Source of the DNA: Ginglymostoma cirratum
Taxonomy: Eukaryota
Direction of reading: 5' to 3'
DNA: 64,000 bases
Assembly (NCBI GenBank): GCA_024137785.1
Contig: JAHRHZ010000035.1
Location: 19,402,846-19,466,845, forward strand
Below, piece after piece: positions 3,432 to 62,110 of the stretch. The notes under the pieces were generated by a model that was not told the DNA's origin, ran no database searches, and was given only the letters and a program-made list of their open reading frames with translations. A program made the translations under genes and the position numbers. Position 1 is the stretch's first letter. Each line of letters opens with the position of its first letter.

Positions 3432-3722
3432 TTATAACAAATTGTCTATGACATAACATATGGATAATGGGTGCTTTAAGTTTGCTGTGGAACAAAATTC
3501 CTTAAAATTTTCCTTAGCTGCTTTTAAAGTCTGGATCTGGTCTTCCATATGACCTATCTCAGCTTGCTTGTTTTCCAGATTGCTGTTCAAACTCTCATTA
3601 CTCTTTTTAAGACCAAGTTCCATTGGATCATTAGCGTCAGCTTTTAATTCTGCATTCAACCAACTGTTTTGATTCATCAGTAATTCATTCTCCTGTACAA
3701 GGCATTTTTGACAATAGTTCAT
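3432..3722 (-). pseudogene. Coiled-coil ORF remnant, possibly gag-like and belonging to the adjacent LTR element
   Basis: Heptad-like E/K/N/L/Q-rich peptide (LKKSNESLNSNLENKQAEIGHMEDQIQTLKAAKENF) next to the putative LTR; no diagnostic motif. Confidence 0.25.
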
Positions 3723-9310: not shown

Positions 9311-9599
9311 TGTCCCCATTCCCCTGCAACGAGTGGAAGTGTGTTGGGATGTGTCTTGTCAGTTTCCAAGACAGCAAAATGACAGGAAGAAGAAGCAAGT
9401 GTCCTCACTAGGAGGCAGTAACTATAAGAAGAACAGGAGTGTGAGAATGGGAGTGCAAATGGAAGGCAGAGAATGAAGTGTTTTGTGCTGATTTTGGGGT
9501 AAGAAGGATTATCAGTGCTGGAGTTAAACTTAGACTGTGCAATGCTGAGTATAGAATAGTGGAGATGTGGAGGGCTGTCACACCTTGGAAGGTAAGTAA

Positions 9600-11928
9600 G
9601 ACTATTGTTTTCCTGCATTGTAGCACCAGAACAAATGGTTATAGAATTTGTTAGTTTCATTCAAAAGGAAAAAAGAGCCATATGAAAGGTTTAGGAAACT
9701 GAATTCAGACAAGGCTCTTGAGGAATACAAAGGAGGCAGGAAAAAACTTAAACAAGGAATTAGGAGGGCTCCATGAAATGTCCTTGGCAAGTAGGATTAA
9801 GGAGGATCTCAAGACATTTTGTATGTATATCAGGAGAAAGACAGTAGCAAGGGAAAGTGTAAGTCTGCTCAAGGACAAAGGAAGGAATTTTAAGGAGCCA
9901 GAGAAAGTGGGTGAGGTCCTTAACAAGTACTTTGCATCAGTACTCACCGAGGAGAGGAATATCGATGGTGGTAACAGGGAAGGGGTATAATAATGTTCTG
10001 GGGCATGTCGATATTAGCAAGGGGGAGGTGTTGGGTATCTTGAAAACCATTAAGGTAGCTAGGTCTCCAGGACTTGATGGGCTCTGTAGAAGGAAGTAAG
10101 GGAGGAGATTGCTGGGGCTCTGGCACGGATCTTTATACCCTCTTCAGCCACAGGCATGGTCCCAGAAGACTGGAGAATATCTTGTACCTTTGTTTAAGAA
10201 GGGTAACAGGGATAATCCAGGAAATTTTAGGCCAGTGAGCCTTACATCAATGATGGGGGAATTATTAGACAAGATTCTTAGGTACAGGATTTAGTCAAAT
10301 TTAGAAAAGAATGGATTTATTAGGCATAGTCAGCAAGGCTTTGCTCTCAAATTTGGAGTTTCAGGGCTAGGTCAGAGAGGAGCTTAGAGGAAGATAGAAC
10401 TAATGGGCTAATGGAAGAAACAAAGACAACAGAATCAGATGATTGGGTGGTGGTGACCTTAGTCCTTCCCATATATTGTTGGTAATGAGGCTCTAGGGAT
10501 GGGGATGTGGATGGGGATGGGGACGGGGATGGGGACAAGGATGAGGGTGGGTTTCCCTGATCAACTACTGGTGCGGCTACCTTAGAAAACACAGCCAAAG
10601 TGATTGGGTAGCAAATTGTTTTTAGAAGCTGGGTTGAGCTTTGCTGACACAGTATAAATGCAGATATAAGTTGTCATTTAACTGTTGTAATGTTAAATTG
10701 TACGCTACAATTAATAGTCATGATGCACTCAGACAGTAATGGCGTAAACAGCTGGGTTGAAATGCACCCTTGAGTTACAAAACACTGCAGGCTGATATCT
10801 TTCATGGGTGGTGGTACAGCATTCCTATGCCCTAGTCTCTCAAATTTGTGGAGTTTTTTGAGGAAGTGACAAAGATGATTGATGAGAGTAGGGCAGTGGA
10901 TGTTATCTACATAGACTTTCACCAAAGCATTTGACAAGGTCCTTCATGGTAGACTGGTCCAGAGGATTAGGTCATATGTATCAACGATGAGTTGCTAAGT
11001 TGGACACAAAATTGGCTTGGCCATCAAAAACAGAGGGTAGTTTTGGAGGGACGTTTTTCTGACCAGAGGTCTGTGATCAGTGGTGTTCTGCAAGAATCAA
11101 TGTTGTTTGTAATGTATAGAAACATTTTGGATGAAAATGTCGGCTGTCAGATAAGTAAGTTTGCAGATGATATGAAAGTTGGTGAAGTTGTGGATCATGT
11201 GGAAGGATGTCAAAGGATGTAGCAGGATATAGACCACTTGGAAAGTTGGGCAGAGAAATGGCAGATGGAGTTTAATCTGAGCAAGTGTGAGTCGATGTAT
11301 TTTTGGAGGTCAAATGCAAGAGGAAAGTATACAATAATGGCAGGACCCTTAGAAGCATTAATGCACAGAGGAAAATACTAAATAAAGAACTGCAGATGCT
11401 GTAAAAATACAAAGATATCTTGGTGTGCAAGCCCATAGTTCCATGGAAGTGGCAACACAAGTGGATAAGCTGGCAAAGAAGGTGTGTGCTTGCCTTCATT
11501 GGTCAGGGCATTGAGTATGAAAGTTGGCAGGTCATGCTGCAGCTGTATAAAGCTTTAGTTAGGCCACATCTGGAATATTGTCTCCAGTTCCAGTTGCCAT
11601 ATTATAGGAACGATGTGGAGGGTGGTCAAAGGATTTACCAAGATGTTGCCTGGATTGGAATGTATTAGCTATAAGGAGAGGTTGGACAAACTGGGAATGT
11701 TTTCACTGGAGCATCGGAGACTGAGGGGTGACCTAACAGAAATATATAAAATTATGAGAAGTATGGATAGGGTGAATAGTCGGAGTCTTTTTGTCATGGT
11801 GGAAATAGGGTGGGAAGTTTCAAAGAGATGTACAAAGAAGAGGGTGGTGGTGCCTGGAACGCCATACTAAGGGGAAGTGGTAGAAGAAGATATGATGGCA
11901 ATGTTTAAGAAGCATTTAGACAGACACA
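9600..11928 (+). mobile_element. CR1 ORF2 (tether plus RT), interrupted at 10361-10828 and ending before its normal tail
   Basis: EVLNKYFASV, VPLFKKGNRDNPGNFRPVSLTS, ISKFADDMKVG, LYKALVRPHLEYC and RRLRGDLTEIYKIM. Confidence 0.93.
10361..10828 (-). repeat. 468-bp inverted duplicate of 12202-12669
   Basis: Reverse-complement match at both ends (coordinates sum to 23030); the peptide MAVFSKVAAPVVDQG... is identical in ORFs 10347-10598(-) and 12432-12761(+). Confidence 0.95.
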
Positions 11929-12201: not shown

Positions 12202-12669
12202 ATAGGAATGCTGTACCACCACCCATGAAAGATATCAGCCTGCAGTGTTTTGTAACTCAAGGGTGCATTTCAACCCAGCTGTTTACGCCATTACTGTCTG
12301 AGTGCATCATGACTATTAATTGTAGCGTACAATTTAACATTACAACAGTTAAATGACAACTTATATCTGCATTTATACTGTGTCAGCAAAGCTCAACCCA
12401 GCTTCTAAAAACAATTTGCTACCCAATCACTTTGGCTGTGTTTTCTAAGGTAGCCGCACCAGTAGTTGATCAGGGAAACCCACCCTCATCCTTGTCCCCA
12501 TCCCCGTCCCCATCCCCATCCACATCCCCATCCCTAGAGCCTCATTACCAACAATATATGGGAAGGACTAAGGTCACCACCACCCAATCATCTGATTCTG
12601 TTGTCTTTGTTTCTTCCATTAGCCCATTAGTTCTATCTTCCTCTAAGCTCCTCTCTGACCTAGCCCTGA
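12202..12669 (+). repeat. Likely donor copy of the 468-bp inverted duplication
   Basis: Flanked on both sides by non-CR1 sequence, whereas the other copy interrupts a CR1. Confidence 0.9.
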
Positions 12670-12834
12670 CTTCTTACCGATTAGTGATTTCTCTCCCTTC
12701 AGCCCTCATCTCCTCTCCAAGCTACTCTTGTGAAATCCAACTCTTTCTGCGTTGGCCTTAACACCACTGTATTACTGTTCCCTCAACCGAGTCTTAGTGG
12801 TGTGCAGTATTCGGGAGAGAGTTGGAGGGCCTAG

Positions 12835-13800
12835 GGTTAAATGTGGGAGTTAGACGTGTGGGTGCATTTGGGGGAGTTGGTGGTGTGGGGTAAATGGAGA
12901 GATAGCAGGTGTGGGCATAAATGGGGGAATTTGGGGTGTGTGGGTAAATGGGTGAGATATGGGTGTGGGGGTAAATCGTGGGTGTTAGAAGGATCTGGGG
13001 GTAAATGAGGGTGTTAGAGGATTTGGGGGGCAAATGAGGGCTGTTACAGAGAGTGTGGGAGTAAATGGAAGGGAGATAGAGGAGGTGTGGGGTAAATGGG
13101 GGAATTTGGGGTATGGGTGTAAATGAGGGGTTAGGAGGATGTGGGATAAATGGGTGTGCTAGGACGGTGTGGGGGTAAATTGGGGGAGTTAGGTGGTGTG
13201 GGGGTGAATGGAGGTGTTAGGAGAGTGTGGTGGTAAATGGCAGATTGAGGGTGTAGGGGTAAATGGGGTCATTAGGAGATGTGGGGTAAATATGGTGGGG
13301 TTGGGGGTGTGGGAGTGAGCGAGTGTGGGGGTAAATGTGGGCATTGGAGAGTGTGGGGGTAAATGAGGTGAGGTTGGGGGTGTTGGGGGAAATGTGGGCA
13401 TTAGGGGGTGTGGGGGTAAATGGGGTGAGGGTAGGGGTGTGAGGGGAAATGTGGGTGTTAGGGGTTGTGGGGGGTAATGTGGGCATTAGGGGTAAATGGG
13501 GTGATGTTGGGGGTGTGGGGGGAAATGTGGGCATTAGGGGGTGTGGGGTTAAAAGGGGTGGGTTGGGGGTGTGGGGGAAATGTGGGCATTAGGGGGTTTG
13601 GGGGTAAATGGAGTGAGGTTAGGGGTGTGGGGGGAAATGTGGGCATTAGGGGTTGTGGAGGGAAATGTGGGCATTAGGGGTAAATGGGGTGATGTTGGGG
13701 GTGTGGGGGGAAATGGGGTGAGGTTAGGGGTGTGGGGGAAATGTGGGCATTAGGGGATGTGGTGTTGAGGGTGTGGGGGGAAATGGGGTAGAGTTAGGCT
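12835..13800 (+). repeat. G-rich satellite of ~28-bp subunits forming a ~56-bp dimer; G-quadruplex-prone
   Basis: Repeated ggggaaatgtgggcattagggggtgtgggggtaaatggggtgagg; dense G3-G6 runs. Confidence 0.9.
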
Positions 13801-18840: not shown

Positions 18841-19409
18841 CCATCACTTGCTACGAATTGATCTATTGAGCTACTTAGAAATATTTAGTATAATGCTATG
18901 CCTCCTTACAGTTGCTTGCATTTAAGTCTATTCAGAATTCAATAAGTTGCTTCAAGTTTATAGTAACCTGAACTCCTGCCTACTGCTGCCATTCTGTACT
19001 GAGCTTTACAGCTCTTGGCTTTACTCTCTTGCTTTAATAGCTTCCTGATTGAAATATGCTTTGTCTTGGGCAACCATCCAGTTAATATTTTTGCCTTATG
19101 TAGGATTTTCTGTGACCAACACATTCATCACCACTTTTCATCTTGACTGAGCAGCCTCTATTCTCATACCTGTTCTGCATCAATCAGCTGACTCATTTGC
19201 ACCTCTGCTCCTAGCTTTTAATTCCATGATAATTCTTTGGATCCCATCTTGTTCTGGACTCTGTTCCATTCTAGCTGAATGACCTTTGCCTTCCTGCTTT
19301 CCACAAACATCCTTCAGAATCTACCAAAACCCCCTTTTCTCCAAAATCAATCAGATCCTGCCTTCCCTGTTTATTGTGCCTCCAAGAAGCAGGGAGAGGA
19401 TGTCCCTTG

Positions 19410-20000
19410 CACCCAAGATCCCTCTGTATATCAATGTTCCTGAGGGCCCTGCCATTTGCTGTTTACTTTCCTCTTGCATTAGACCTCCTAAAATGCATCA
19501 TCTCACACTTATCCAGATTAAACTCCATCTGCCATTTCTCTACCCAACTTTCCAATTGACCTGTATTCTGCTGTATCCTTCGATAACCTTCCTCACTATC
19601 CGCAATGCCACCAATTTTGATGTTGATTGCAAACTTACTAATAAGACCACCTATGTTTTCATCAAATCCAAATATATATTAGGTAGATTAGGTGGGTTAT
19701 AGGGGGATGGGTTTGCGTGAGTGCTCTGAGGGTCGGTGTGGACTTGTTGGGCCGAAGGGCCTGTTTCCACCCTGTAGGGATTCTATGATTAATTCTATGA
19801 TATTACAATATATAGTACAAGCAACAGGGGTCCCAGCACTGATCCTTGTGGACCCCCCACTAGTCATAGACCTCCAGTCAGAAAAACATCCCTCCACTAC
19901 TACCCTCTGTCTTCTATGACCAAGCCAATTTTGTATCCAACTTGTTACTCACCATGGATCCCATGCAACTCAATTTCCAGGACCAGCCTACCATGAGGGA
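19410..20000 (-). mobile_element. CR1 RT fragment with an HE1 3' fragment inserted at ~19680-19800
   Basis: [13 protein letters not shown] and related RT motifs; plus-strand HE1 tail gggtcggtgtggacttgttgggccgaagggcctgtttccac...ggattctatg. Confidence 0.85.
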
Positions 20001-20513
20001 CATCTTTGTTGCTGATTGTGTTCATTGATTCCTTTGCTTCTCTTTCTTCCATCCAGTCCCAGCTAGTTTCTTTTTTCTCCTTTTTTTTCTCATTATTCAC
20101 AGCAAGCCCTCTTTCACTTCATTCTGAAATGAAATCTGTGTGCTGTTTCCCTGACCACATATCCACTGCACTTCACAATGCCAGCTGAAATCCTGAGTAA
20201 TTCTCTTTCTGTAAGTACTCACCCCTTTCCAAACTGCTGTCCTCACTCCCCCCACCCCCACCCTACCTTATATCACCAACCCTTGATCCCCCTGATGTTG
20301 CAAACTGCTTGTTACTATTTGTCCAAGGGCAGTGGGTGTCACTGGCTGGGCCAGCATGTAATGCCCTGGAGAAGGTGGTACTGACCTGCCTCATTGAAAC
20401 CACTGCAGTCCTTAAGATGTGGGACACCCAAAGATTCTATCACAGCCTGTTGCAAATGTATGGCTTACTAGGCCATTCTAGAGGGCATTTAAGAGTCAAC
20501 CACATTATTGTAG

Positions 20514-25724: not shown

Positions 25725-26600
25725 ATAGGCAGGAAGTAACCCATTCGGTTTCTCAACCCTGTTCTGCCATTCAGTAATATCATGGCTGATCTGTTTGTGT
25801 TTAAAATTCCACCTTCACATCTACCCCAATCAATTTTGATTTACTTGCCTAACAAGAATCCATCTACCTCTGTCTTAGAATCACCAATGACCCCATTTCC
25901 ATTGCCTTCTGAGCGAGAGTGTCGCACAGCCTTCTGAGAGAGAACATTTCTCTTCATCTCTGTCTTAAATGGTCAACACTTAAATATTTTTTAAGTGTCT
26001 CTTGTTCTGAACTCACCCACAACAGTGAACAGCTAATCGACATTCACCATGGAAAGAGCATTCAGGAATTTATAAATTTAAACCCCTCAGTCTTCTAACT
26101 TCGGCTGAAAACAAGCACAGCCTGTCCAAACTATCCTCATAAGACAACCCCACATTCCAGGTATCAATTCAGTAAATGTCCTCTCAACTGCTTCCAATGT
26201 ATTTACTTCTTTGAACAAGGAGACCAAAGCTGCGCACAGTATTCAATTTATGATTTCACCAACGTTTAACTGAAGCATTGTGTCCTTGTATGGTCAATTC
26301 TCCTCATAATATAAAGGATTGCATCCCATTAGCCTCCTTGATTACTTGATATAACTGCACACTAACTTTTTGTGACCCATGCACTAGATCCCTCTGCACC
26401 TCAAGATTCAGCAGTTGTTCTCCATTAAGGTGACCCTCTGTTTTCTCATTCTTCTTGCCAAAGTGAATAAATTCACATTTTCCCACATTATGCCTATCTA
26501 TCAGATATTTGTTCACTTGCTCAACCTATCTATATCCTTCTGCAAACTGTTTATGTTTTATTTACAAGGCATTTTCCTACCTATCATTTAGATATGAAGC
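25725..26600 (-). mobile_element. Old CR1 3' fragment
   Basis: NVGKCEFIHFGKKNEK..LNGEQLLNLEVQRDL; tail tcatggctgatct. Confidence 0.8.
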
Positions 26601-29889: not shown

Positions 29890-30581
29890 GAGATAGCAGG
29901 AACTGCAGATGCTGAAGAATCTGAGATAACAAGGTATAGAGATGGATGAACACAGCAGGCCAAGCAGCATCAGAGGAGCAGGAAAGCTGACGTTTCGGGC
30001 CAAGAACCTTCTTCAGAAAATGACCCTTCAGAGCTTGGTCTGCTGTGTTCATCCAGCTTGACATCTTGTGATCAAACATTTTACTTGCTCTGTGTTTGGG
30101 AAGGGATTCACTCGGCCCTCNNNNNNNNNNNNNNNNNNNNNNNNNNNNNNNNNNNNNNNNNNNNNNNNNNNNNNNNNNNNNNNNNNNNNNNNNNNNNNNN
30201 NNNNNNNNNNNNNNNNNNNNNNNNNNNNNNNNNNNNNNNNNNNNNNNNNNNNNNNNNNNNNNNNNNNNNNNNNNNNNNNNNNNNNNNNNNNNNNNNNNNN
30301 NNNNNNNNNNNNNNNNNNNNNNNNNNNNNNNNNNNNNNNNNNNNNNNNNNNNNNNNNNNNNNNNNNNNNNNNNNNNNNNNNNNNNNNNNNNNNNNNNNNN
30401 NNNNNNNNNNNNNNNNNNNNNNNNNNNNNNNNNNNNNNNNNNNNNNNNNNNNNNNNNNNNNNNNNNNNNNNNNNNNNNNNNNNNNNNNNNNNNNNNNNNN
30501 NNNNNNNNNNNNNNNNNNNNTTCCTGCTCCTCTGATGCTGCTTGGCCTGCTGTGTTCATCCAGCTCCACACCTTTTATCTT
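29890..30581. mobile_element. Penelope-derived element with inverted arms spanning a gap
   Basis: Exact 14-bp TSD agaacaattgtaca at 29876-29889 and 30582-30595; minus-strand core CTGAAGAAGGTTCTTGGCCCGAAACGTC at ~29988-30016. Confidence 0.85.
30121..30520. other. Assembly gap (400 N)
   Basis: Run of n. Confidence 1.
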
Positions 30582-30629
30582 AGAACAATTGTACATCTAT
30601 TTTTGTTTCGTCTTCATAAAAGATGACAC

Positions 30630-31205
30630 AAAACTGGTGAGGTCACTTTTAGAATACTGTATACAATTGTGATTGTCCTTCTATAAGAAGGATATTGTTA
30701 AACTTGAGAGATTGCAGAAAAGATTTACAAAGAAGTTGCTGGGGTTGGAAGGTTTGAGTTATAAGGAGAGGCTGAATAGCCTGGGGCTTTTTTTCCCTGG
30801 AGCATTGAAAGTTCAGAGGTGACCTTATAGAGGCTTATAAAATCATGAGGGGCACGGATAAGGTGATTATTTTTTTCCTAGCTCTTTTTCCTAGGGTGGG
30901 AGAGTCCAGAACTAGAGCACATAGGTTTAAGGTGAGAGGGGAAAGATTTAAAAAGGACCTCAGGGGTAGTGTTTTCATACAGAGGGTGGTGTGTATGTGG
31001 AATGAGCTGCCAGAGGAAGTGTTGGAGGTGGGTACAATTACAATGTTTAAAAGACATCTGGATGGATACATGAATAGGAAGGGTTTAGAGGGATATGGGC
31101 CAAATGCTGGCAATAGGACTAGGTCAGATTGGGATGTCTGGTCAGCGTGAAAGAGTTGAACCAGAGGGTCTGTTTCTGGGCTGAATGACTCTATAAGTCT
31201 ATGAC
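30630..31205 (+). mobile_element. Younger CR1 3' fragment nested in the old CR1
   Basis: LVRSLLEYCIQL and LFPRVGESRTRAHRFKVRGERFKKDLRGSVFIQRVVCMWNELPEEV; tail gactctataagtctatgac. Confidence 0.92.
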
Positions 31206-33209
31206 AAGGGTTTTGGGGAAGGAGCTATTGAAGGAAATTAGTATTGGTAAAAAATGGTGCTGGAAAAATTGTAATGGTAATTAAAGTTGATTAGTCTCCA
31301 AGGCCTGCTAATCTACATCCCAATGATGTGGGAATGGTATTGGTTGTTATCTTCTGAAATTCTTAGATTCTGGAACATTCTTGCTGATAGGAGGGATGAA
31401 GAAAAGTAAAGAATTTCAGACTGGTTAGCCTAAAATCAGGAGCTGGGAGAATCCTGGAGCTTATTGCAAAAGATATGATAACAGGACAGTTAAAAACTTC
31501 CAACAGTATTACACAAAGTCAACGTGGATTTATGAAAGGAAAATCATGCCTGGCAAAGCTATGGGTGTTTTTTGAGGACATAACCAGTAAAACAAGGAAA
31601 ACCAGTGGATGTGGTGCTATTGGACTATCAGAAAACTTTTGAAAAAGCCCCACGTAAGAAATAATTCTGCCAAACCAAAGCCCTTGAAATCTGTGGTAAT
31701 ATATTGACATGGATTGAGAATTAGTTGTCAGATGGGAAACTGAGAGTAGGAATGAATGGACTGATGGAGAATGATTTAAATGGTGATAATTTGGGAAATG
31801 TTGAAGTGCAAATGGATATGGGTGCAACATTCATTCTAGTTTTGTTTAATACTGCACAGACAACTGAGGTCCGTGCACAGCAGCGACATTCAGAATCAGA
31901 GGAATGTTGCCTCCCGCCAATCATACTGTGTGGAATGTCAGAGTGACCACACGCACAGCCACACAGCTTAGATGGAATGTTGCCTGGATGTCCTCTTACA
32001 CCAGTCACTGAAAGCAAATGTGCAGGTACAGCAAAATATTAGGAATGCACATGGTATACTGGTCTTCATTGCAAGAATTTTTGAGTTAAGATGCAAGGGA
32101 ATTTTACTCCAGTTGTAAAGGGCCTTGGTGAGATCACACCTGGAGTACTGTGCGCAGTTTTAGTCTCCTCACCAAAGAAAATATGTATTTGCCAAAGAAC
32201 GAGCGCAGTGAAGATTCACCAGATTGATTCCTGGGAATGTCAGGCTTGTCATCAGAGATTGGATGAATTAGGCTTGTATTCACTGGAGTTCAGGAGAATG
32301 AGATGGATTTCATTGTAATATAAAATTCTAACAGGGCTAGACAGGCTGAATGTGGGAATGATGTTTCCTCTAACCTTGGGGGGTGCAGCTAGAACAAGGG
32401 GTCACAGTTTCAGGATACACTGTGGGCCCATTTGTACTATGACGAGGAGAAATTTCTTCAAGCCTACAGTGTTGAACCTGTGGAATTCTTTATCTGTGAA
32501 GGCTGTAGATGCAAAGCCACTGAATATTTAAGAAAAACATAGGTTTCTCAAAGAAAGAAGTGTTATAGAGTTTGGAGAGAGAGTGACTTTTGGCATTGAG
32601 ATAGATGATCAGCCATGGTCATGTTGAATGGCAGAGTGAACTCAAAGGGCCAAATAGCCTCCTGTTGCTCCTATTTTCTATGTTTCTGTGGCCTAACTTG
32701 CTCAACATTTTAAACATTTTCTATTCCTTTTTTAGCCAAGCAGATTATTTGTTCCATTGCAGTTTGTGGTCCTTGCTCTGTGCAAATATGCTGTCATGTT
32801 TCCCAACATTATCGCAGTCTCTACTATGTAAATTAGTGTGTAAATGCAAATTATTTTGTTTACTCTTCTTTCTGATTTACATACAGTTTAATTAACATCA
32901 CCTGCAGGTATGGAGTCCACTTCTGCATTTACACTAATGGTATCCAGAACTGTATATTCACCATTTACTATGCCCTTTCTTGAGCCTCTGTGTCAGATTA
33001 CTTTAAGCTCTGAATGAGGCATGACTCTCTTCAACTGAACATCAAGAAGTTTCAGGGTATCGTGTGACGTACAAGTAATAAATCACCTTCTTCATACCTG
33101 CCTCGTCAATTTTTGTCATTTTCTTTTCTCATCAGGAATGCTATAGTTCTCTCCTCAATAATTCACTTCAAAAGATTTCAGTGGAGCCCTTTTGCATTAT
33201 TCTGTTATA

Positions 33210-34079: not shown

Positions 34080-34400
34080 AGGAATGCAGAAAGAATGTTC
34101 GTGATGATCAGGGAGCACAAGCTGAGGGTTCACAGTCTAAGGAGGTAGGCAATTTAGGGCCAAAATCAGGAGAAATTTCCTCACCCAGAGAATGGTTAGC
34201 CTATGGTAATTTCTGACATAGAAAGTAGTTGAGGCCAAAACTTTGAAACTTTTCAAGAAGGAGTTAAATATAGTACTTAGGAACAAAGGGATCAAAGAGT
34301 GTAGGGAGAAAGCAGGAACAGGCTACTGAGTTGAAGGATCAACCATGAATAGGTTGAGTGTGAGACCTGAATGGTCTACGCCTGCTCCTTTGTTTCCAGT
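34080..34400 (+). mobile_element. Old CR1 3' end
   Basis: aggagaaatttcctcacccagagaatggttagcc...ttcaagaaggagttaaata...gatcaaccatga. Confidence 0.7.
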
Positions 34401-39709: not shown

Positions 39710-40140
39710 TCAGGCTGTCCCTGGGATGCACTCTGAGACAAAGATTGACTGCACTTGGAAGACAATCAACTCAGTGAAAGGTGCATTTTGGTCTGCTTGA
39801 AACTTGTTGGGTCTTCTGATGCACCTCAACTACACATTCCAAGGTCCAGGACTGTGTGCTGAGGGTCGCACTAAAGCTTCAGGCAGCTGCTGCCAAGGCA
39901 CAGTGGGGAAAGACCACCGTCTAAGGTCTATCTGCAAAAGTACAACAAGGGTCTGTTAAGACTGAGACCTCCTTCATTTCCTGAAAGAAATGTAAGGAGT
40001 TTCCTTGCATAATTAGGAACTGCCCTTGTTTGTAACTAACGAGGAATGTCAAAATGCCATTGGTTTTCTGTAAAGTCTGTACAGACTTGTGTTATACTTT
40101 TTTTATTTGAGATCATTTAAGAATGAAGTATAATCGTGAA
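39710..40140 (+). mobile_element. Tx1/L1-group LINE 3' end
   Basis: PGMHSETKIDCTWKTINSVKGAFWSA*NLL...HSKVQDCVLRVALKLQAAAAKAQWGKTTV*. Confidence 0.8.
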
Positions 40141-40569
40141 ATGAAAAACATATCCACCCATATTATCTGGTCTTGAGTGTCATTCATATTTTATTTGATT
40201 TATATACATACTTATAATAGTCATACCATTGAGCACTTAAAATGAAGATGCTCTTTCGGGGATTTTAAGGAGCTTTGAGACACCCCTAATCCCTAAACAT
40301 TTGTTTCCACATTCACTATTTTTTCAGCTGGCAGCAGAATGGATCCTGCAGGATTGCAAATGTCCATTACTGTACTTATGGTGTGTGCATGTGTGTGTGT
40401 CCGCACTTGGGCAGAAGTAGTGCTTAACCCATTCATGGGAACATCTTCTGTCATTATGAAATAACCATTAACATTCCCTAGATGGCAATGTTTCCTGTTA
40501 TTGTGTACTTCTGTTTACAAACAAGCCAAATATTTATTTGGGAACAATGTCACTTCATAAATTGGAATT

Positions 40570-40910
40570 TTTTTTACCCATGGGTTGAGGGCATCACTGG
40601 CTGGGCCAGCATTTATTGCCCACCCAAAGGGTAGTTAAAAGTCAACCACATTGTGGAGGGTCTGGAGTCACATGTAGTCCAGACCAGGTAAGGATGGTAG
40701 TTTCCTTCCTTCCCTAAAGGACACTAATGAACCAGATAGGTTTTTCCTGTCAATCAGCAATGGTGATCATTAAACTCTTATTTCCAGGCTGATATTGATT
40801 CAAATTCCACCAAATCGGCTATGGTAGGATTCAAACCCAGGTCCCTAGAGTGTTACCTGGGCCTCTGGATTATTAGTCTAACAATAATACCACGAGGCCA
40901 TTACCTACCC
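40570..40910 (-). mobile_element. tRNA-derived SINE (38777 family)
   Basis: Reverse-complement match over tail, body and head (ggattcaaaccc B box). Confidence 0.88.
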
Positions 40911-41829
40911 CTAATCAAATTGTCATCAACAACAACTTCGATAAGGCACATATACACGAAGCCAATATGTTCAACAGAAATTTTTACTGTCCTCAGGCAT
41001 GCAAGTTTTAGTAATTCAGGTGAAATGTTAGTAAATTGCCAATGAGAATACAGCAGTCTTATATGAGAATTAGATTAATTAACATCGCCTTCCTGTTGGC
41101 TCACCAGTTCTGAGAATTCCTATTTCAACCCATACTCTCTTCATGTCTGAACACTGGTGAAAAAGGTATCAGTGCAAGTTCAGCTCAGTCCAAGCGCTGG
41201 TTGTCAGTGTTGATGGTAGTAAGGTGGTTCCAGACTAACCGAAGGCAGGAAGCATTCATGTGGCCTCATTATGGAGAGCTCAGCTGCTGTTTTGTTGGCA
41301 TTGCATCTGTTTTTGTCAGGTGACTGATATATGACTTTATCTCCAAAATTAAAGAACACGCATGTGAAAGGAATGGCAGAGACTGGAGGGTCTGGAGGTG
41401 ATTCTGGAGGTTATGCATGTCCTGTTTGACACAGTAGAGCAGTGAACGCAGACTATGAAAACTGCTGTGACTTTGAATGTTATTATTATGAAGATGGCAA
41501 AGTGGGTCATTTGTACAAAGCAGTGTCCCACAAGTGCAAAGGAGACAACAGACCAGATAGTTCCTACTGTCTCTGAAACAGACCAGCTCTTCTATTTTGC
41601 TGGTATTCGTTGTGAGAGAAACATAGCCAAGAAACAGCAGAATTAAAGTATTTCTTCACATAGTAACAGAGATTCTTTTATGTCTATGCAAATGCAGAGG
41701 CGAAGTCTCAGTTTAAAGTCCTATCTAAAATAATGGAACTCTCGATGATGCAGCAATTACGCTACAAACAGCACCAGTCCACATTGTGTGAACAGGTCCT
41801 ACAGTTGGACTTGACTCTTAGCGTGACCA

Positions 41830-42240
41830 TGGAATCAGGGACTCCCGGTTATTGGTGATGTGGTGGTGGCAGTGGAGCCGGGGGCGAGTGTGGGTTCGGC
41901 ACGGGAGCTGGCATTACTGGCAACATCAGCGAAGTGGGCCCAGCGGCAAAGAGGTGGTACCTGAAGAGTGGCAACTTCCACATTGATGGGTCCAGTGCAG
42001 GCAGCGACAAGGCGGCAGAGGAAGGCTGGTGGCATAGCGCTATTGGTGTGCCAACTCAGGGCTCGGGACTCATGGCAGAAGTGGCAGAATGAATTAAGAT
42101 ACTCTTTCAGTTATATCTTTTTACTCTTTTTATTCTTGAACTACTAAAAATGCTGCTGGGTTGTGGCGATGGTTGAAGCTGTATTTTACTGTATTGTTCA
42201 CTGTAAAATTTAAGTGACAATAAATCATTCAATTGAATTT
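41830..42240 (+). mobile_element. GC-rich non-autonomous retroposon with Rex1/Babar-like tail
   Basis: GC-rich body ending in ttcactgta...gtgacaataaatcattcaatt. Confidence 0.4.
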
Positions 42241-42786
42241 AGTTGAGCTTAAGATCTTTCACCCACCTGTCAAAGTGGTCCTAGTTGCAAAGCTTTTCAT
42301 GATCCGGCATGATGTTATCAAATAATTCTTTATAGCAAAGATAAGCATTGAGTCATGATTACAAAATAAATACTAGTAGCGTGAATTGAACTTTGAACTG
42401 GACATTTTCCTTCAATGTTGTAAATACATCTCAGTTTGAGATCTTCTTCTCAATGGTTGTTAGTGTTGTTTAAAACGTGGCATCCTTGGTAAATAACTCC
42501 TTTGTTGATTTGCCCTTAACTGACTACTGGCTTCCATTGATAAGAGAGTCTGATTAAACAATTAACTTTCCTCCAAATTCCACAAACCTGACCAACAACT
42601 GGCATTTTATACTGAAAACGGACTAATTTATTAGTATTTGAAATTTCACAAAACCTTAAGTTCAGTGGTACAGCACAAATGTGCATAATAGAAGGTAGCT
42701 GACTGGATGGATGGACACAGATCATTTACATTGGATCCTGACTCATATTTCAGAAGTGGACATTGCCAGTTGATACTTTAGCAGAT

Positions 42787-43944
42787 ATGGGTAGCTTCTG
42801 AGATGGAGATAGCCAATTATCGAGATCACAAATGGCGTCCAGTGTGACAATAAACATGGAGAACTATCCCTCCTCATCCTTCTTGGCTACCTACAGCCTT
42901 TGAGACAGTTGACGACAGTGACATGGTGCCATGTTTCAAGTAACACCAGAACATGCATCAGTGAATGAGACGAGTAGACACAGAGGGGAAGACAGGAGTG
43001 CGGAGGACAGGCATCCTACAACTGCATTCTCTAATATTTCAATGAAGTCATTCGCAAAATCTTGTAAGCTGCCTGTTAGTACAGGGGTAGGCGTGCCTCT
43101 TGTTATATGCTCCCTGATCAAAGATAGAGTGCTCAGGTAGCCAGAAGCAATAGTCCTGGTCAACATGCTGCCCATTTACAAAGACATGGATAAAGCTTAC
43201 ATTAAAGGTTTTGCCCTCGGTGTTAAGGTCTTTAGGGATAAGCATGATGGAATCCTTTTAGAGGAAACAGCTGCTGCAAAACGCAAAGTGCTGCGTACCA
43301 TGCAGTCATGGAAAGCATTCAGTACAACATAACGCTCATATAATCGGCACAATAATGTCAGGTTGCTAATGGGTCTCCTGCCTTGCTGCACACAAATGGA
43401 GTGAAGACCTTAAGTAGAATCCTATGGAGGTCATTGACTTTCTTTCAGCACTGCTGACTACTTCTCTGTATCATTGAGATGGCACTGACTTGGACCAGGC
43501 TACCAGGCTTTGCTGACATGCACTTGGACTTGTTTGTCGGGAAGAGGACACCCCTCTTTTGCATCACTTCTCCCAACATGTTCAGATTGTGCCGTTGACT
43601 TTGGAATGCTAGTGCTGGCCTGGGTGCACAATGGCTTTATAAAGATGCCACGGGCACCAGAAATGCTGGTCTTTCAGCGGATATCCTATGAGTGGTACGT
43701 TGTTCCCGGAACAACAGCTGGTAAGATAAGGATGGAATCAGCCATGAAGGACGCAACTGGGCTGGTTGTTAATGAGGAGGGTTTGGTAAAATATGACGGA
43801 AATGTTATTGGGCATCATAATGTGAGTGCCTCCAAACAATGCGATGCACCTCATGATGAAGAGGGAAGATTCAGCACTGAGTGTTTGCCTTCAAGTGATG
43901 CAGGACTAACTGCAGAGGATCATTGGGCCAGGATGTGCAGTTAA
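42787..43944 (+). pseudogene. Intronless disrupted ORF (~385 codons) of unknown origin; candidate endogenous viral element or retrocopy
   Basis: ORFs 42931-43140 and 43510-43944 share a frame; the reading is open again over 43141-43329 (PEAIVLVNMLPIYKDMDKAYIKGFALGVKVFRDK...); compensating frameshifts near 43328 and 43600; the stops read through are one C>T change from Gln/Arg codons. Confidence 0.55.
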
Positions 43945-44529
43945 AGCTTTTGCAGTTCCCTTGTCACCTTGCAGTGGAAACTCTGATTCGGGAGATAACG
44001 CTTGGCTGTTAGCTCCCCAAGAGGGGCCATCAGTGTCTGAAATGCCTGTCCTTGTCAAATGACTGAAATTTAATTGTGTTTAATTGTTTACTTATATGAT
44101 TCTGGGAGTCTAAGTCAGTTGCTGTTTGACCTGCAGAGGGAAAGTTAGTTTCCAGGCTAAGCTTGCAGCCTGCATTGGCTCCTCCATTTCTGTCGCTATG
44201 TTGTGGGCTGGAGAGAAACCTTCCTTTTGCATGTGAGGAGGATAGCGACTGAGCCCAGCTCACCGAAGAAATTATTAGCGTACACTGACCTTCAAGAAGT
44301 TTAAATTCACTGACCCAATTTTTATTTAATGGAGTAATTGGCCTGAGAGCAAAGATGGCCATCAAAATGACTGCCTGCAAATGTCCAAATAAGCTTAGTG
44401 ATGTTAGTTCCTGGAAACAGATGACACTAAGCCAGAACGTGTCAGTGTGTGGGCCAGTGACATCACTGCACTCCGTGTGTAAGAACGTCACTAACGGCAC
44501 ATGAGCAAAAGGACTTCTGAGGCTGATGT

Positions 44530-44925
44530 TCAGCAATGGCCTTCCTAACTGCCAACTGAACCTGCATGTTAACTTTAAGAAATCCTGAAGTAGAACTGAC
44601 GAGTCCATTTGTGCTTCAGATTTCCAAAGCCTTTCCCCTTTTAGAAAATATTCTATGCCTCTATTCTTCCTACCAAAATGCATAAGCGCACACTTTCCCA
44701 CATTGTATTGCAACCGCCACTTCTTTGCCCATTCTCCTAGACTGTCCAAGTCCTTCTGCAACCTCCCCGATTCCTCAACGCTACCAGTTCCTCCCCCTAT
44801 CTTTGTGTCAAACTTAGCAGCAGTGCCCTTAGTTCCTTTGTCTAGGTTGTCAATATATAATATGAACAGTTGTGGTCCCAACACGGACCCCTGCAGAACT
44901 CCACTAGTCACTGGCTGCCATTAAA
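44530..44925 (-). mobile_element. CR1 RT fragment
   Basis: TSGVLQGSVLGPQLFILYIDNLD...RLQKDLDSLGEWAKKWRLQYNVGKC. Confidence 0.9.
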
Positions 44926-45494
44926 ACACGAGTTTAAACACAAGTTTCCACATCTACAAGACAGTTCTAGTAATTATTTTAATAAATGTCTTTTGCTTAG
45001 AAGTAACAAACTTGCCTTTTCAACAAGATATGTTGTTAAACACTGTTTTTGGCACAGTTTAACAAATTTGCATACAAACAGGTGTCAGCTGCCAGAAAAT
45101 GTGTTTGTGGCCAGACAGCAAGTTCTCACACAGGAGATGTGCCCCACCCAATCTTGATTGTCTAACACAGGGAAATGATTTATGTCCAGTGTCAGTCAAT
45201 GCCCAGAAAACTCAATCCTGGCACTTAAGTAAACAACATAGAAAACAGAATTGCATAGCAATGACTCTACAAACTTTCTCGCAATTACTGTGTCAAACTC
45301 ACATCAGCAATAATCCAACAGCTTCAGTCTGGCTGAATGAGAACTCCAATTTTACCCAAAAAGTCATTGGGGGAACTTGAAATATTAACTCTATTTCCCT
45401 CTCCATGGATGCTGCCAGATTTTCTGAATTTCTCCACCTCTTTAATTCATCAATTATATTGTGTCATGGAAAATAAAGCCATTGAAAAATTAAG

Positions 45495-45830
45495 AGACGC
45501 GATGGTAGTGTAGTGATAAGCCAGAAGACTGGGTTCAAATCTCACCATGGCAGCTGTGGAATTGAACTTTAATCAATAAATATGGAACAGCTTTAATCTC
45601 AATTATTGGGCCATGAACGTGCCATTGATTGTTGTAAAACGCCATCTGGTTCACTAATGCCCTCCCGGAAAGGAAACCCATTGTCCTGAGCAGACTTTTG
45701 ACTCCAGATCCATAGCTACATTGTTGCCTCTTACTGCCCTCAAAAATGGTCCAAGCATGTCACTTGTTTCAATGGCAGTTAGGGATTGGCAACATATTCT
45801 GGCTTTGCCCACATCCCATGAAAGTTTATA
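45495..45830 (+). mobile_element. tRNA-derived SINE (38777 family, older)
   Basis: gggttcaaatctcaccatggcag, catctggttcactaatg, gactccagatcc, cccacatcccatga. Confidence 0.75.
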
Positions 45831-45919
45831 TATATTTAAAACTACCCACAAAAATTATATCTCATACTGCTCCAGTATCAAATGTATCATTTGTGTTTTG
45901 TAATACATTATAAAACAAG

Positions 45920-46140
45920 GATCAGCATTGGTTGGATGGCTGGTTTGCATAGTGTGATGCTGAAAGCATGGGTTCAATTCCCACACTGGCTGAGGTTACC
46001 ATGAAGAATTCTCCTTCTCAACCTCCCCCTTTTGCCTGAGGCATGATGACCCTCAGATTAAATCACCACCAGTCATCTCTCTCTCTCTTTAATGAGAGAG
46101 CAATCCTCTGGTGCGGTAAGACAATGGCAACTTGACTTGG
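45920..46140 (+). mobile_element. tRNA-derived SINE, different family
   Basis: B box gggttcaattcc, body ggctgaggttacc...cctgaggcatgatgaccctcag. Confidence 0.6.
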
Positions 46141-48184
46141 TCAGCATTGGTTTCGTTATATCCTCTGTAAATTATTTCAGAAACTGCAGAATTCTGGGAG
46201 ATTCCAGCCTTCCTAGAAGAACGGCATTCTGGAGCTGTACAGACATTTAAATTGATGAGGCACAGCAACACATTCAATCTCTGTGCTTGTTAATCATTTA
46301 GTGTTTACATCAGCAGAAATAATCCTTGGAATGTAAACTAATGATAAACGCTGCAGTATTCCAACCAGTAGCAATGGCAGTCAATGAAAAATAAAGTAGG
46401 ACCAGTCACTCCCTATTTCACATTTCCTGAATTTTCAGAAATTTCTAGTTCAGACCTTTACCTTCTGCAAATAGATCATCAGCTTCATTTTGATAATCTC
46501 TGCAGAAATATGTTCCAGATTCAAGTTTATAATTCTAAAAGTTGTCAATTTTTGTGATAAATGCTGCGGATTTCTATTCTCAATGGGTCAGGACTCCTGT
46601 GGCATTTCCTGACCCGATTTCCAATAAAAGACAAAAGGAAGAGTTGTTCATGTATTAAAGATGTTAACCTATTTGTTTTAAAATAGCACAAATAGAAACT
46701 TGTTGGAAATGTATTAACTGGAGTGTTAAAACAGTACATAGAGAAAATAAAACTGTTGAAATGTTTGGATAGAAATGTTCTTAATGTGTCTGTATTTCTC
46801 CAGGGATTTTAACAAGCTCACAAATCAATAAAAAGGAATTGCTTCCTGACACCTGCCTAACTAGAGAAAGGAAATGGTTACTTTCTTTCTGTGCATTACA
46901 TTTTACGACATTTTTATTGAAAGGGACAGATTGATGTTTAATTTGTTTAAAAGTGATTTCAAAGGTATGTTGAATTAAACACAAACAATTGAAAAATATG
47001 CTTTATAATTCAAATGACAGGAAGGCTAATTTAAAATACAACATCGTCAAACAATAAACATGCTGGTGTTGGCAGACGGAAAATAGATTGTGCATAATTT
47101 ATGTTTACTATATGGGGAAGTGTTTCCATTTAACTCCATAGTGCCGGTATATCTTTCATAATGTGTGCTAACAATAGCAATGATCTTAAACTCATCTGCA
47201 TGATTATTCACGTTATTCATATTGAAGGGAATAAACATAGCAGAAGCAGTCCATTGCAATTCTGCTTGATTATGCATGCAGTATTTCCTTTGAAGCCTTC
47301 CTTATGTTCATTCATGGAAAGGTTTGGAGGGATATTGGCCAGGAGCAGGCAGGTGGGACTGGTTTGGGATTGTGTTTGGCATAGAATGGTTGGACCGAAA
47401 GGACTCTATGTTTCATACAGGAAAACAAGCTGCTGTTCATTTAAATACTGTTCATCAAAACCATTGAAATGCTACAGTGGAGAAGAAGGTCATTGAGCTC
47501 ATCAATCTTATGGCTGTTCTCCTAAAATAGTTAATTTTACTTTACTATATTATTATGCAATTAATTTAATTACAATTAATGAATAACCTAATTCTTTATA
47601 ACCTCAGTTTCTTTGATAAATTAGTCTGTATTGCCAAACCCCACATAAAATGCTTTGCATCCCTTATCTTTGATTTAAAGGCAGTGCTTAAATATAGGGC
47701 TATTCTTTCTTCCTTTCTCATTTACCTTTGCAGTAGATCCTATTGATGACAATTCACTTTCTTGTTCTTCTAACCTATTCCAGCGTACATTGTTTCAGGG
47801 AAACAAGTCATCACCCTGCAAGTATTGTCTTCCTGACACATGTGGGGATCCACCTTTCAGAACAAATACTCCCCTTTCACTGCAAAGATTTGTGCTTTTC
47901 TATCCATGTCTTTATCCAACGTCATTTTAGACTGTTATGATCTGTTACATAATCGGACAATGTGTAATTATTGCAATATTTTAAGTAGCGTTCCAAGCCT
48001 TCTTACCTGCCGTCCTCATCCTCAACTAAACTCATGTAATTTCTTCATTTCTTGCCTTCCCCCAGCATTTATCACTTCTAGCCTTTTGGTCAGCTGACTC
48101 AAGTGTTAATTTATGTTAATATACTGACCTGGTTCCAGCTAAGGCCCAGTAGCAATACTCTCGAGGCCCACTCCACAGATCTGA

Positions 48185-50064: not shown

Positions 50065-51755
50065 TAGAGTCAAAGAATCATAGAGATATATAGCACGGAA
50101 ACAGCCCCTGCAATCCAGCTTGTCCATGCCAACCAGATATCCTAAATAAATCTAGATCCATTTGTCAACATTTGGGTCATATCCCTCTAAACCCAACCCT
50201 CTAAACCTATTCATATCCCCATCCAGATGCCTTTTAAATGTTGTAACTGTACCAGCCTCCACCACTTCCACTGGCAGCTCATTCCATACACACATCACCC
50301 TCTGTGTGAAAAAGTTGCCCCTTATGTTCCTTTTAAATCTTTCCCCTCTCACCTTAAACCTATGCCCTCTAGTTTTGGACTCCCTCATGTGGAGGAAAAG
50401 ACCTTGGCTATTTAGTCTATCCATGCCCCTCATGATTTTATAGACATCTATAATGTCACTCTTGAGCTTCCAACACTAGTTCCAGCCCCAGTCTATTCAA
50501 CTTCTCCCGATAGCTCTAACGCTCCAATCCTGGCAAAATCCTTGTAAATCTTTCCTGAACCCTTTCAAGTTTCACAACATCTTTCCTATAGAAGGGAGAC
50601 CAGAATTGCACACAATATTCCAATTGTGGCCTAACTAAGGTCCTGTACAGTCACAACATGACCTCCCAACTCCTATACTCAATGCACTGACCAATAAAGG
50701 CAAGTATACCAAATGCCTTCTTCACTATCCTGTCCACCTGTGACTCCACTTTCAAGGAAGTATGAACCTGCATTCCAATGCCTCTTTGTTCAGTAACACT
50801 CCCCAGGACCTTACCATTAAGTGCATAAGTCCTGCCCTGATTTGCCTTTCCAAAATGCAGCAGCTCACATTTATCTAAAATAAACTCCATCTGCCACTCC
50901 TCAGCCGATTGGTCCATCTGTTCAAGGTTCTGTTGTACTCTGAGTAACCTTCTTTGCTGTCCACTACACCTCCAATTTTGATGTCGTCTGCAAACATACT
51001 GACCATACTTCCAATGTTCACATCCAAATCATTTATATAAATGATGAAAAACAATGGACCCAGCATCAATCCTTGTGGCACACCGCTGGTCACAGGCCTC
51101 CAGTCTGAAAAGCAACCCTCCACTACTACCCTCTACCTTCGAGCCAGTTCTATATCCAATTGACTAGTTGTCCCTGTGTTCCACGTAATCTAACTTTGCT
51201 AACCAGTCTACCATGAGGAACCTTGTCGAACGCCTTACTGAAGTCCACATAGATAATGTCCACCGCTCTGCCCTCATCAATCCTCTTCATTACATCTTCA
51301 AAAAACTCAATCAAGTTGGCAGCACAGTGGCTCAGTGGTTAGCATTGCTGCCCCACAGCACCAGGGACCCAGGTTCAATTCCAACCTCAGGCGACTGTCT
51401 GGGTAGAGTTTGCACATTCTCCCCATGTCTGCGTGGGTTTCCTTCAGGTGCTCTGGTTTCCTCCCAAAGTCCAAAGATATGCAGGCTAGATGAATTATCC
51501 ATACTAAATTACCCATAATGTCCAGGGATATGTAGATTAGGTAGGTTAGCCATGTGAACAGCAGGGATAGGATGAAGTTGTGAGTCTGCATGGAATGCTC
51601 TTCAGAGAGTTGGTGTGGATGTGTTGGGCCGAATGGCCTGTTTCCACACTGTAGGAATTCTATAATTCTATGACCTAAGTTAGTGAGACATGATTTCCCA
51701 CTCACAAAGCCAAGTTGACTATCCCTAATTAGTCCGTGCTTTCCAAATACATGTG
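50065..51755 (-). mobile_element. CR1 3' part (same family as 212-1458) with an HE1 insertion
   Basis: [50 protein letters not shown] and RGHRFKVRGERFK. Confidence 0.94.
51318..51676 (+). mobile_element. HE1 (V-SINE), full length
   Basis: Head, V domain and tail present; TSD aagtt at 51313-51317 and 51677-51681. Confidence 0.93.
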
Positions 51756-57329: not shown

Positions 57330-57575
57330 GTCTTGGTGCCATAGAGACTTCAGCATTGTAGGGTAGGAGTGCACTGTAGGAGGCACCATCTCACATGTGA
57401 TTTAAAAGACCTCGTGGTACTATTCAAAAAGGACAACGGAGCACTCACAGTGACCCAGCCAATATTTATGCCTCAACGAATACCTCTAAAACATTACCCG
57501 GTTATTTACCTCATTACTGTTTGTGGGGTACTGTTGTGTGGAAAATGGTGGCTGTGTTTTTCCATATTACAAAGA
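57330..57575 (+). mobile_element. Deu-domain SINE
   Basis: taaaagacctcgtggtactattc...gccaatatttatgcctcaac...cattactgtttgtggggtactgttgtgtggaaaatgg. Confidence 0.65.
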
Positions 57576-59022
57576 AAATCCCACAGATCATGTTGTACGT
57601 GCCAAATTGGGGCATAAAAGGACTCCTGATTTTGGTGGCAAACCTGAATTTGCGTCTATCCTCTGTGTACTTTCCGCTAAGAAATTCTACACTAGCAAAA
57701 GCGACAGGCATTTTTGTAACCTCAAAAATTCATTTTTTAGCCACCTTACAATTCGCTGCATGGGATCAACAGGTGATTCAGTTGGTGTTGCTGGGAGTGT
57801 AAGAAATGCCCACACAGACCAGACTGTACCTGAACAATGAACATAAATCAGTTCCCGTGCAAAGGATTGAAGTACAATGTTGGCTTAAGTTTAAAAGTGC
57901 CATCCTATCAAATGACTGAGCTGCAGAGAAGGAATTTGTACTAGTGAAAAGTTGGTATGAGAATGGTAGAAAGAGGATTGCACTGTAAAGAGGACACCCA
58001 AGATCAACTGCACCCACAGAACGGTGACCAGCACTGGCTTCACCTTGAGAAACATGTATTGAAGTAGATCCTTAACAATACCAGAATTGTTACATTGTCA
58101 CCAGTCATGCAAACACTTAATTGGGCAAAATCAAACCATGGGTCCAGCAGAGATTTCAGAGAAATAGCTAATTGGTTTAGAGTCTTGTATTTTGAATGTT
58201 GGGTTACTGTCTACGTGTCACTTTGTACAATTAATCAATCCAACAATATATGCAATAATGATTTAATTTGAGTTACTAGTGCTGTTTTGTTCTCATTTCA
58301 AAATAGTGATCATTTACATCATAGGTTCATGGTTTATACTCAGTGCATCAGTCATTTTTTTTTAAACCCTGTTTCCTAAAGGATTTTTTTAAGGCTCCAA
58401 AGCTCAACGTATACATCACAATCTATCGTATCTTTTGGATGTGAAGCCCAGATAGGGTTTCTCAAAATCATGAAAAGTGCACTATAAATGCAAGTAATTG
58501 GTTTATTTTTATGTAACTAAATTTCACTGTTTTATTTCTTTGCCAAACTTTAGTCAACATAGTTTTGTACCTCTGGCATACAATTGTATGGAATTTCTCA
58601 AAAACAACAAAATGGCATCTTGATCTTCTGTATTAACTGGGATTAGATCCTTTTAACAGCTTTAGAAAGTGATCCCAATTATTAAATTGATCAATCGTTT
58701 GGGGAAGTTGGCATGATTATTCTATTTGAATCTGTTTAATCGGTTTATCATAGAATTAAATGGCAAAGTAGCCACATGGATTCTCCAATTTAATGTTGCG
58801 TGTCAATGACTGATTCCTACTGGCTGATTTGAGGAAATCAAATTCATTGAAGGCATACAATAAAACAAATATTTTTGGTTCCTTTGCAAAACGATATGAA
58901 ATGTAATGAGAGATAAAAGGTACTGCAGATGCTGGAGAATCCGAGATAACAAGCATGGGGCTGGATGAACACAGCAGGTCAAGCAGCATCATAGGAGCAG
59001 GAAAACTTGACGTTTCGGGCCT

Positions 59023-59659: not shown

Positions 59660-60035
59660 TCCCATTTTCTGAGTACAGTGTAGATTTCCCCAGATTCTAC
59701 TTGTAAAGTTTGCATATTGGACAGTGTTTTCCCTAGAGTAGGGAGTTCAAATCTAGTGGGCATACTTTTAAGGTGAGAGTGGGAAGATTTAAAAGGGAGC
59801 TGAGTGGCAAATTTTTCATATACAGGGTGGTTTGATGTGGAATGAACTGCCAGAGGAAGGGTAGATACAGGTACATTTCCAACATTTAAAATACATTTGG
59901 ACAGGTACATGAATAGGAAAGGTTTACAGGGATATGGATCAAATGCAGGCAAATGAGACTAGTTTAATTTGGGAAACGTGGTCAGCATGGACGAGTCGGA
60001 CTGAAGGGTCTGTTTCTGCGCTGTATGACCCTATA
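59660..60035 (+). mobile_element. CR1 3' fragment
   Basis: ttccctagagtagggagttcaaatctagtgggcatacttttaaggtgagag...gggtctgtttctgcgctgtatgac. Confidence 0.88.
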
Positions 60036-61699: not shown

Positions 61700-62110
61700 A
61701 TAGCAGGCAAGGAAAGAGATGTAGAGTGGTAAATTTAAGACCATTAGCAGGAAATTGTTCTTCACACAAAAGGCAATCAACAAATGGATTATACTTGCAA
61801 GTAGAAAGTCAGACATTCTGGTTGCCATATTATGAAAGGATATGGAGGTGACGGAGAGGATACAGAGAAAACTTAGAAGGATGATACGAGAAATAAATAG
61901 GTGAACATGTGAGGAAAGGATTAATAGACTGGATATCCTTTCTTGAGAAAAGAAGGTTCAGGAGCAACCTAATAAAAATATTCAAATTCTGAATGTTTGG
62001 ACAAAATGAATATGGAGAAAATGGTTCTTCATGTGGGGAACAGCAAAGCTATTAATACAAGCGAGTTACTCAGAAATTCGAGAATTTAAAATAAACTTCT
62101 TTACTCTGTT
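61700..62110 (+). mobile_element. Highly decayed CR1 fragments
   Basis: gaaattgttcttcacacaaaaggc, gaaaggatatggaggtgacggagaggatacagagaaaa and gagaaaagaaggttcaggagcaacctaata. Confidence 0.5.

Follow-up and report, generated by a model that had tools for sequence, protein, structure and literature searches.

The 64,000-nt stretch of the Ginglymostoma cirratum genome analysed here, referred to below as the window, carries on its forward strand an intronless block of 1260 nt (42772..44031) that is probably a true decayed open reading frame (ORF). We tentatively favour the explanation that the block is an old endogenous viral element (EVE), consisting of a single gene from an unrecognised RNA-virus family, the reovirus case included. 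Viral origin, as proposed in the initial annotation of this DNA, stands as the leading idea by exclusion, but none of the methods used revealed a viral homologue. Since homology is the defining test of an EVE and this test failed, we describe the block as looking like an EVE and do not call it one. What the block presents is an intronless reading the size of a single gene, with stops scattered through it and no other copy in the window, and with neither a transposon domain nor a database relative. Its parts are as follows.

42772..42786, plus strand: proposed leader starting GATAC, placed from the sequence; the edge of the element is not fixed
42787..42924, plus strand: candidate polar N-terminus of the fossil ORF, not included in the best local coding segment; ambiguous in its reading frame
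42925..43327, plus strand: stretch A, in the frame of 42787, with a single stop at 43138
43328..43600, plus strand: stretch B, in a shifted frame, with stops at 43367, 43415, 43475 and 43514; the weakest part
43600..43944, plus strand: stretch C, back in the frame of 42787, with 114 codons open up to the TAA
43945..44031, plus strand: proposed 87-nt trailer ending CCATC, placed from the sequence; the 3' edge is not fixed

Reading frame and coding signal of the block

The landmarks on which the initial annotation had built its reading are present (GATA at 42772, ATG at 42787, TAA at 43942-43944 and CATC at 44028-44031), and its lengths of 15 nt for the leader and 87 nt for the trailer are correct by sequence. 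The peptides that it quoted are also found, in the frame of 42787, then in the frame of 43328, and from about 43600 in the first frame again. The claim that a few frameshifts suffice to rebuild the protein held only in part, as the 5' 140 nt are more broken than this implies. Between 42787 and 42924 the frame of the first ATG contains four stops (42799, 42901, 42910 and 42919), a second ATG at 42803 opens another frame with stops at 42845 and 42851, and there is no codon periodicity (471 of 1000 shuffles reach the value). Ten stops interrupt the first frame between 42787 and 43941. With respect to the two frameshifts placed near 43328 and 43600, the quoted frames exist, but the stops do not force either change: the middle third (43328-43600) contains four stops in the shifted frame versus five in the first. 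As the shifted frame saves one stop only, the frame change rests on composition and directional periodicity. The best reading path shifts near 42923, 43378 and 43559, at positions that are uncertain by about 50 nt. That the stops could derive from particular sense codons is uninformative, since any stop is one change away from several of them. At the 3' end, a shifted frame stays open for 41 codons beyond the proposed stop (43937-44059, plus strand; no Pfam match), and the old ORF may therefore end beyond 43944.

The block is richer in GC and CpG than its surroundings, as had been noted, with a GC content of 0.464 and a CpG observed/expected ratio of 0.34 compared with 0.408 and 0.22 for the window; these values are reached by 2.8% and 5.0%, respectively, of 580 window tiles of the same size. 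A GC change-point was located at the 5' side in the interval 42639-42869, which spans the proposed leader, while that at the 3' side was insignificant (log-likelihood gain of 1.1 near 44050). Composition thus neither fixes nor contradicts the proposed edges, and these edges are not independent of the terminal motifs.

The proposal that the block is a decayed, intronless and unrecognised coding sequence is supported by both its protein-likeness score and its codon periodicity. Using a path score, in which the best reading path is compared with a generic amino-acid table, the block reached 15.8 bits on the forward strand and -26.4 on the reverse. Of 500 Markov shuffles, 2 and 3 reached the forward score, as did 22 of the 1093 overlapping tiles that cover the rest of the window. 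When shuffles were matched to the composition of the block and the better strand of each was chosen, 5-6 of 1000 reached its protein-likeness, 60-69 of 1000 the periodicity of its best path, and 1 of 1000 the two jointly. Scored locally, the best coding segment of the block (42925-43920) attained 23.7 bits, with nothing coding-like contiguous to it; simulations of 64-kb windows reached this value in 0 of 40, 0 of 200 and 1 of 200 cases. Seven other segments of the real window score as high, of which five have LINE reverse-transcriptase (RT) matches and two are of low complexity.

The periodicity is unevenly distributed. Stretches A and C lie in one codon phase (chi2 = 27.8, equalled by 3 of 1183 placements), and the periodicity of stretch A (42937-43326) was reached by 16 of 1000 shuffles. 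For stretch B the figure was 136 of 1000, with a directional score that prefers the shifted frame; the 5' end and the middle third of the reading are weak. Stop depletion alone was not significant (13-26 of 300 and 364-456 of 1000 shuffles). Under a harsher null, in which 64 kb were simulated with the block's own trinucleotides, 23.7 bits was reached in 114 of 200 runs, which shows that the coding score leans on composition; this null is harsh because just about 3% of the window has such a GC content.

The translated amino-acid make-up is close to that of an average protein. Stretch A has a polar first half and a basic second half with a net charge of +7, and a membrane-length hydrophobic segment is lacking (maximum 19-residue hydropathy of 1.68). 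The clustering of polar segments was reached by 11 of 1000 shuffles, this being one of five pattern tests on the translation of which the other four were null; amphipathic moments were not above those of shuffles (helical, 483 of 1000; strand, 917 of 1000). In low-confidence models, stretch B is helical (AlphaFold2, pLDDT 46.7) and stretch C is strand-rich with an acidic tail (pLDDT 40.1). Fold searches were uninformative, and a pLDDT of 40-47 is too poor for a comparison with reovirus folds. The ancestral protein would have been soluble, internal or non-structural, and about 330-385 residues long, with a polar N-terminus and no membrane segment. By eye, stretch B seems to us to resemble loosely the nucleoprotein motifs of mononegaviruses; nucleoprotein families gave no match to it in Pfam or the PDB under search filters that drop weak matches.

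Searches for relatives of the block

In Pfam, the six frames of the block returned one match at E ≤ 1 (Rieske_4, E = 0.35, minus strand), and six pieces of it returned one match at E ≤ 10 (DUF3659, E = 0.1). None of four pieces matched PHROGs, and the best PDB sequences were unrelated proteins with E values of 0.5-1.2, a further PDB search yielding no match at all. A word-based search of 5.8 billion proteins, covering 211-674 aa only, yielded no match among 1390 candidates for the first frame and none among 651 for stretch B. When the first frame, which holds A and C in register but not B, was compared with 1.84 billion representatives by phmmer, a sole match was returned (P0001). It is spurious: the protein is an 80-residue tandem repeat in which six weak copies inflate the score, and the match falls mostly in the off-frame part. 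In GTDB genomes, 0 of 40 pattern matches were confirmed. No viral homologue was thus found in Pfam, PHROGs, the PDB or the protein collections. In mostly open-access literature we found no description of the locus or of a vertebrate reovirus EVE, and six shark genus names did not occur in any of 12 supplementary files of PMC11089739; the EVE catalogue of that paper, a separate item, and the supplements of PMC11521997 may list the locus.

As described initially, the block is devoid of RT, endonuclease, integrase and transposase domains, and tblastn with 26 RT proteins gave no match to it. RT matches elsewhere in the window, which we take to be CR1-like, were the following.

305-1457, 8906-9463, 9983-11927, 19400-20056, 26082-26495, 30577-32528, 34129-34269, 50191-51741, 59728-59947 and 61836-61955, with the fragment of the next line on both strands: LINE RT fragments (tblastn)
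44447..44920, minus strand: LINE RT fragment flanking the block downstream, a separate insertion (PF00078; tblastn with 26 RT proteins)

Split frames limit the sensitivity of these searches, and we estimate that about 25-30% identity would be needed for detection. Two decayed pieces from the same window served as positive controls. With the adjacent LINE fragment as query, 26 of 814 candidates were recovered, the most distant at about 40% identity over 80 residues, and a TPR-derived piece at 3435-3767 was matched in Pfam at E = 8e-12. Since these controls were recognised and the block was not, it is unlikely that the block was retrocopied from an annotated gene or encodes a known transposable element (TE) protein. 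Remote viral relatives, like unannotated TE ORFs, may have escaped detection. A retrocopy, the second origin considered in the initial annotation, can be largely set aside for annotated genes: no parent was found in the protein collections, though shark proteins are included in them. A self-BLAST of the 64-kb window gave no match overlapping the block, and hence no second copy there.

A possible fossil RNA-virus gene and its rivals

The preferred explanation is that a host retroelement, of a kind with the LINE RT pieces abundant in the window, reverse-transcribed the mRNA of one viral gene, and that the DNA copy would have integrated in apparently gene-poor DNA and then decayed in the germ line without selection. 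Today the block would most likely be an inert fossil that makes no protein. A crude splice-site scan around it gave no convincing neighbouring or host exons, and it seems to lie between genes or deep within an intron. An RNA-virus EVE corresponds to one transcript (PMC2987831, in excerpt), and the block likewise comprises a single coding-like segment (42925-43920) without introns.

Five stops in 335 codons correspond to approximately 0.17 substitutions per site (95% CI 0.06-0.41). At the rate of 7e-10 per site per generation given for the epaulette shark in the excerpted text of PMC10587355, this amounts to at least 10^8 generations, a figure too large to be accepted as such, and we conclude no more than that the block is very old. 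Great age would explain both the lost poly(A) and the missing relatives, and it predicts that orthologues occur in other sharks. Full-length mammalian RNA-virus EVEs typically carry a poly(A) tract and target-site duplications (TSDs), according to the same excerpt of PMC2987831. Neither was found at the block, and age could erase both: the reported absence of poly(A) was borne out, as A-runs of at least 5 and AATAAA are both missing from 43901-44700, and a search for TSDs gave just four 7-nt repeats, none of them at the proposed edges.

Compared with the non-retroviral RNA-virus EVEs of vertebrates (EBLN, filovirus, chuvirus and paramyxovirus; PMC2987831, PMC11089739 and PMC11521997, each in part), the block is likewise single-gene-sized, intronless and decayed. 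It also shares with them a low copy number, seen here locally over 64 kb, and a location in LINE-rich DNA. Those elements are, however, defined by homology to viral proteins and often have poly(A) and TSDs, none of which the block shows. The processed pseudogenes and LINE fossils of the window show the same decay by stops and frameshifts, but they are recognised and the block is not. Six families account for about 80% of the fish virus sequences in GenBank (PMC11237817, in excerpt), and given this dominance an unmatched virus gene from a shark is plausible.

The strongest rival, unlikely in our judgement but a real contender, is that an extinct or unannotated TE left an orphan ORF here (ORF1, gag-like or accessory), now apart from the pol or transposase gene of that element. 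Decayed coding DNA in the window derives most often from TEs (five of the eight best segments), and a second, weaker protein-like patch lies upstream of the block at 41340-41650. An unannotated TE ORF would be missed by our searches, because the libraries are apparently without unannotated shark genomic ORFs: the block's own open frame of 151 codons was not retrieved from them. Against this reading, no TE domain was found in the block and no same-strand RT match between 34269 and 59728. Self-BLAST showed no flanking LTR pair, terminal inverted repeats (TIRs) were not convincing, and no second copy exists in the 64 kb. Inverted matches of 11-13 nt between 42555-42571 and 44065-44150, considered as a candidate TIR, are AT-rich and were judged to be due to chance.

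A chance reading of moderately GC-rich non-coding DNA, selected as the best-looking stretch, is rather improbable. It would account for the insignificance of the stops, for the 114 of 200 block-trained null runs that reached the score, for the missing amphipathic signal and homologue, and for models with a pLDDT of only 40-47; the frame changes, moreover, were chosen after the fact. It is opposed by the rarity with which matched shuffles reach the score (just 5-6 of 1000 and 2-3 of 500), by the contrast between the strands (-26.4 versus +15.8), by the single phase of A and C, and by the near-average amino-acid make-up.

It is quite improbable that the block is a dead host gene, either a retrocopy or a large exon of a lineage-restricted gene whose parent was lost or is unannotated. 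The window does contain a host-derived decayed piece (TPR-like, 3435-3767, minus strand) and the block is intronless, but a copy diverged by about 0.17 should match a living parent strongly. None was found despite the shark proteins in the collection, and the crude splice-site scan gave no convincing neighbouring exons.

Direct integration, by DNA repair, of a piece from a DNA virus or virus-like element (adomavirus, herpes-like or polinton-like) would fit the missing poly(A) and TSD, which suit non-retrotransposed integration; adomaviruses infect elasmobranchs, and such DNA viruses carry many orphan ORFs. This origin is improbable too, as a single ORF-sized segment with no neighbouring viral genes and no homologue argues against it.

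Within the favoured RNA-virus explanation, the initial annotation had seen a specific hint in the two ends of the block, which resemble the termini of fish reovirus segments. The hint is not supported beyond chance: each motif has one mismatch, there is no significant panhandle, and no reovirus protein in the libraries searched matched. As given in an excerpt of PMC13141839, UCAUC is the common 3' end, and the 5' ends of fish orthoreoviruses are GAUAA(A/U), GACAAU and GACAU. The species-specific 5' motifs of Spinareoviridae that were compared also included GUU. The 3' end of the block, CCATC, agrees with UCAUC at four of five positions, one mismatch being compatible with decay, and TCATC is absent from 43900-44600; at the 5' end, GATAC has four of the first five bases of the PRV motif. 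Within the window, 9% of the 30-nt stretches contain GATA and 30% of the 100-nt stretches contain CATC, and the joint chance of both termini is about 0.03 before allowing for the many possible virus termini. The ends of reovirus segments base-pair with each other. For the block, the end-to-end pairing energy was unexceptional relative to controls of the same geometry (291 of 1624 at 30 nt, 297 of 1622 at 40 nt and 103 of 1620 at 60 nt). S-class proteins (sigma2, sigmaNS, sigma3 and sigma1) gave no match in Pfam, the PDB or the protein collections, all of which presumably contain these reovirus families; fast-evolving accessory proteins could, we assume, still escape.

In the excerpt of PMC13141839, AORV leaders are 10-45 nt, trailers 45-135 nt and segments from 1080 nt in length, with S2 at 1335 nt. 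Set beside the S-class segments of fish orthoreoviruses (PRV, LMBRV and AORV), the block has a size, leader and trailer within range and near-matching terminal motifs, but it differs in reading GATAC and CCATC, in the lack of significant end pairing and in having no protein match. The fit in size is circular, since the ends of the block were chosen from the motifs. A precedent for an endogenised reovirus segment in an animal is the Liao ning virus segment-5 EVE of Aedes aegypti, the one reovirus EVE reported in the excerpt of PMC2987831. That element, however, belongs to an insect, keeps its ORF open and shares about 98% identity with an extant virus, whereas the block is old, broken and unmatched. 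The excerpted text of PMC11089739 gives no Reovirales EVE among 874 vertebrate species screened, and in that of PMC11521997 the word reovirus does not occur. It is highly improbable that a shark reovirus, extinct or unsampled, left one of its small genome segments here complete with both ends. If true, the block would be the first fossil of a dsRNA virus known from any vertebrate, and it would close the dsRNA gap in the fossil record of vertebrate viruses. The broader case, a fossil gene from a virus family without a sequenced member, is the favoured explanation itself.

EVE screens depend on a known viral probe, so a fossil gene without a homologue escapes them. Few non-retroviral EVEs have been catalogued in cartilaginous fish: for Chondrichthyes, Table 3 of PMC11089739, as excerpted, gives one paramyxovirus-like EVE and no bornavirus, chuvirus or filovirus EVE. 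If viral, the locus would document a virus lineage not yet sampled from cartilaginous fish, and its orthologues would set a lower bound on its age; as a transposon orphan or a chance reading it would be of little importance.

Surroundings of the block

The window has a GC content of 41%, is CpG-poor and is rich in LINE RT fragments. For the RT piece at 44447..44920, the best named vertebrate match is from Stegostoma tigrinum (45% identity). Upstream of the block lies one further feature.

41845..42240, strand unassigned: repeat-like insertion rich in GC and CpG, its tail AT-rich, with probably no relation to the block; placed from the sequence, the repeat label being an impression

The GC content of 41845-42095 is 0.594, and the insertion (41845-42240) has no second copy in the window. 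About 1 kb upstream of the block, two frames of 41340-41852 (plus strand) are loosely protein-like, though the region is not among the segments scoring at least 14 bits. One of the frames recalls, to our eye, a helix of hAT transposases; 41200-41852 gave no informative Pfam or PDB match. At 57401-57840 (plus strand) there are two overlapping open frames of 116-133 codons without a Pfam match, one of which recalls by eye what we take to be the end of a pogo or Tigger-like element.

The match to PF25481 (Nucleoprot-TPR, E = 8e-12) at 3435-3767 on the minus strand is surrounded by stops and frame breaks and may extend a few hundred bases each way; it is probably what remains of a retrocopy, now decayed, of the TPR gene of the host. 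An Rfam search over 40000-47000 gave a sub-threshold tRNA-like match outside the block at 45938-45992 (plus strand; 22.8 bits, E = 0.32), possibly the head of a SINE. Finally, 10361-10828 and 12202-12669 form a near-identical inverted duplicate pair of 468 nt, which adjoins a G-rich low-complexity tract at 12804-13788.
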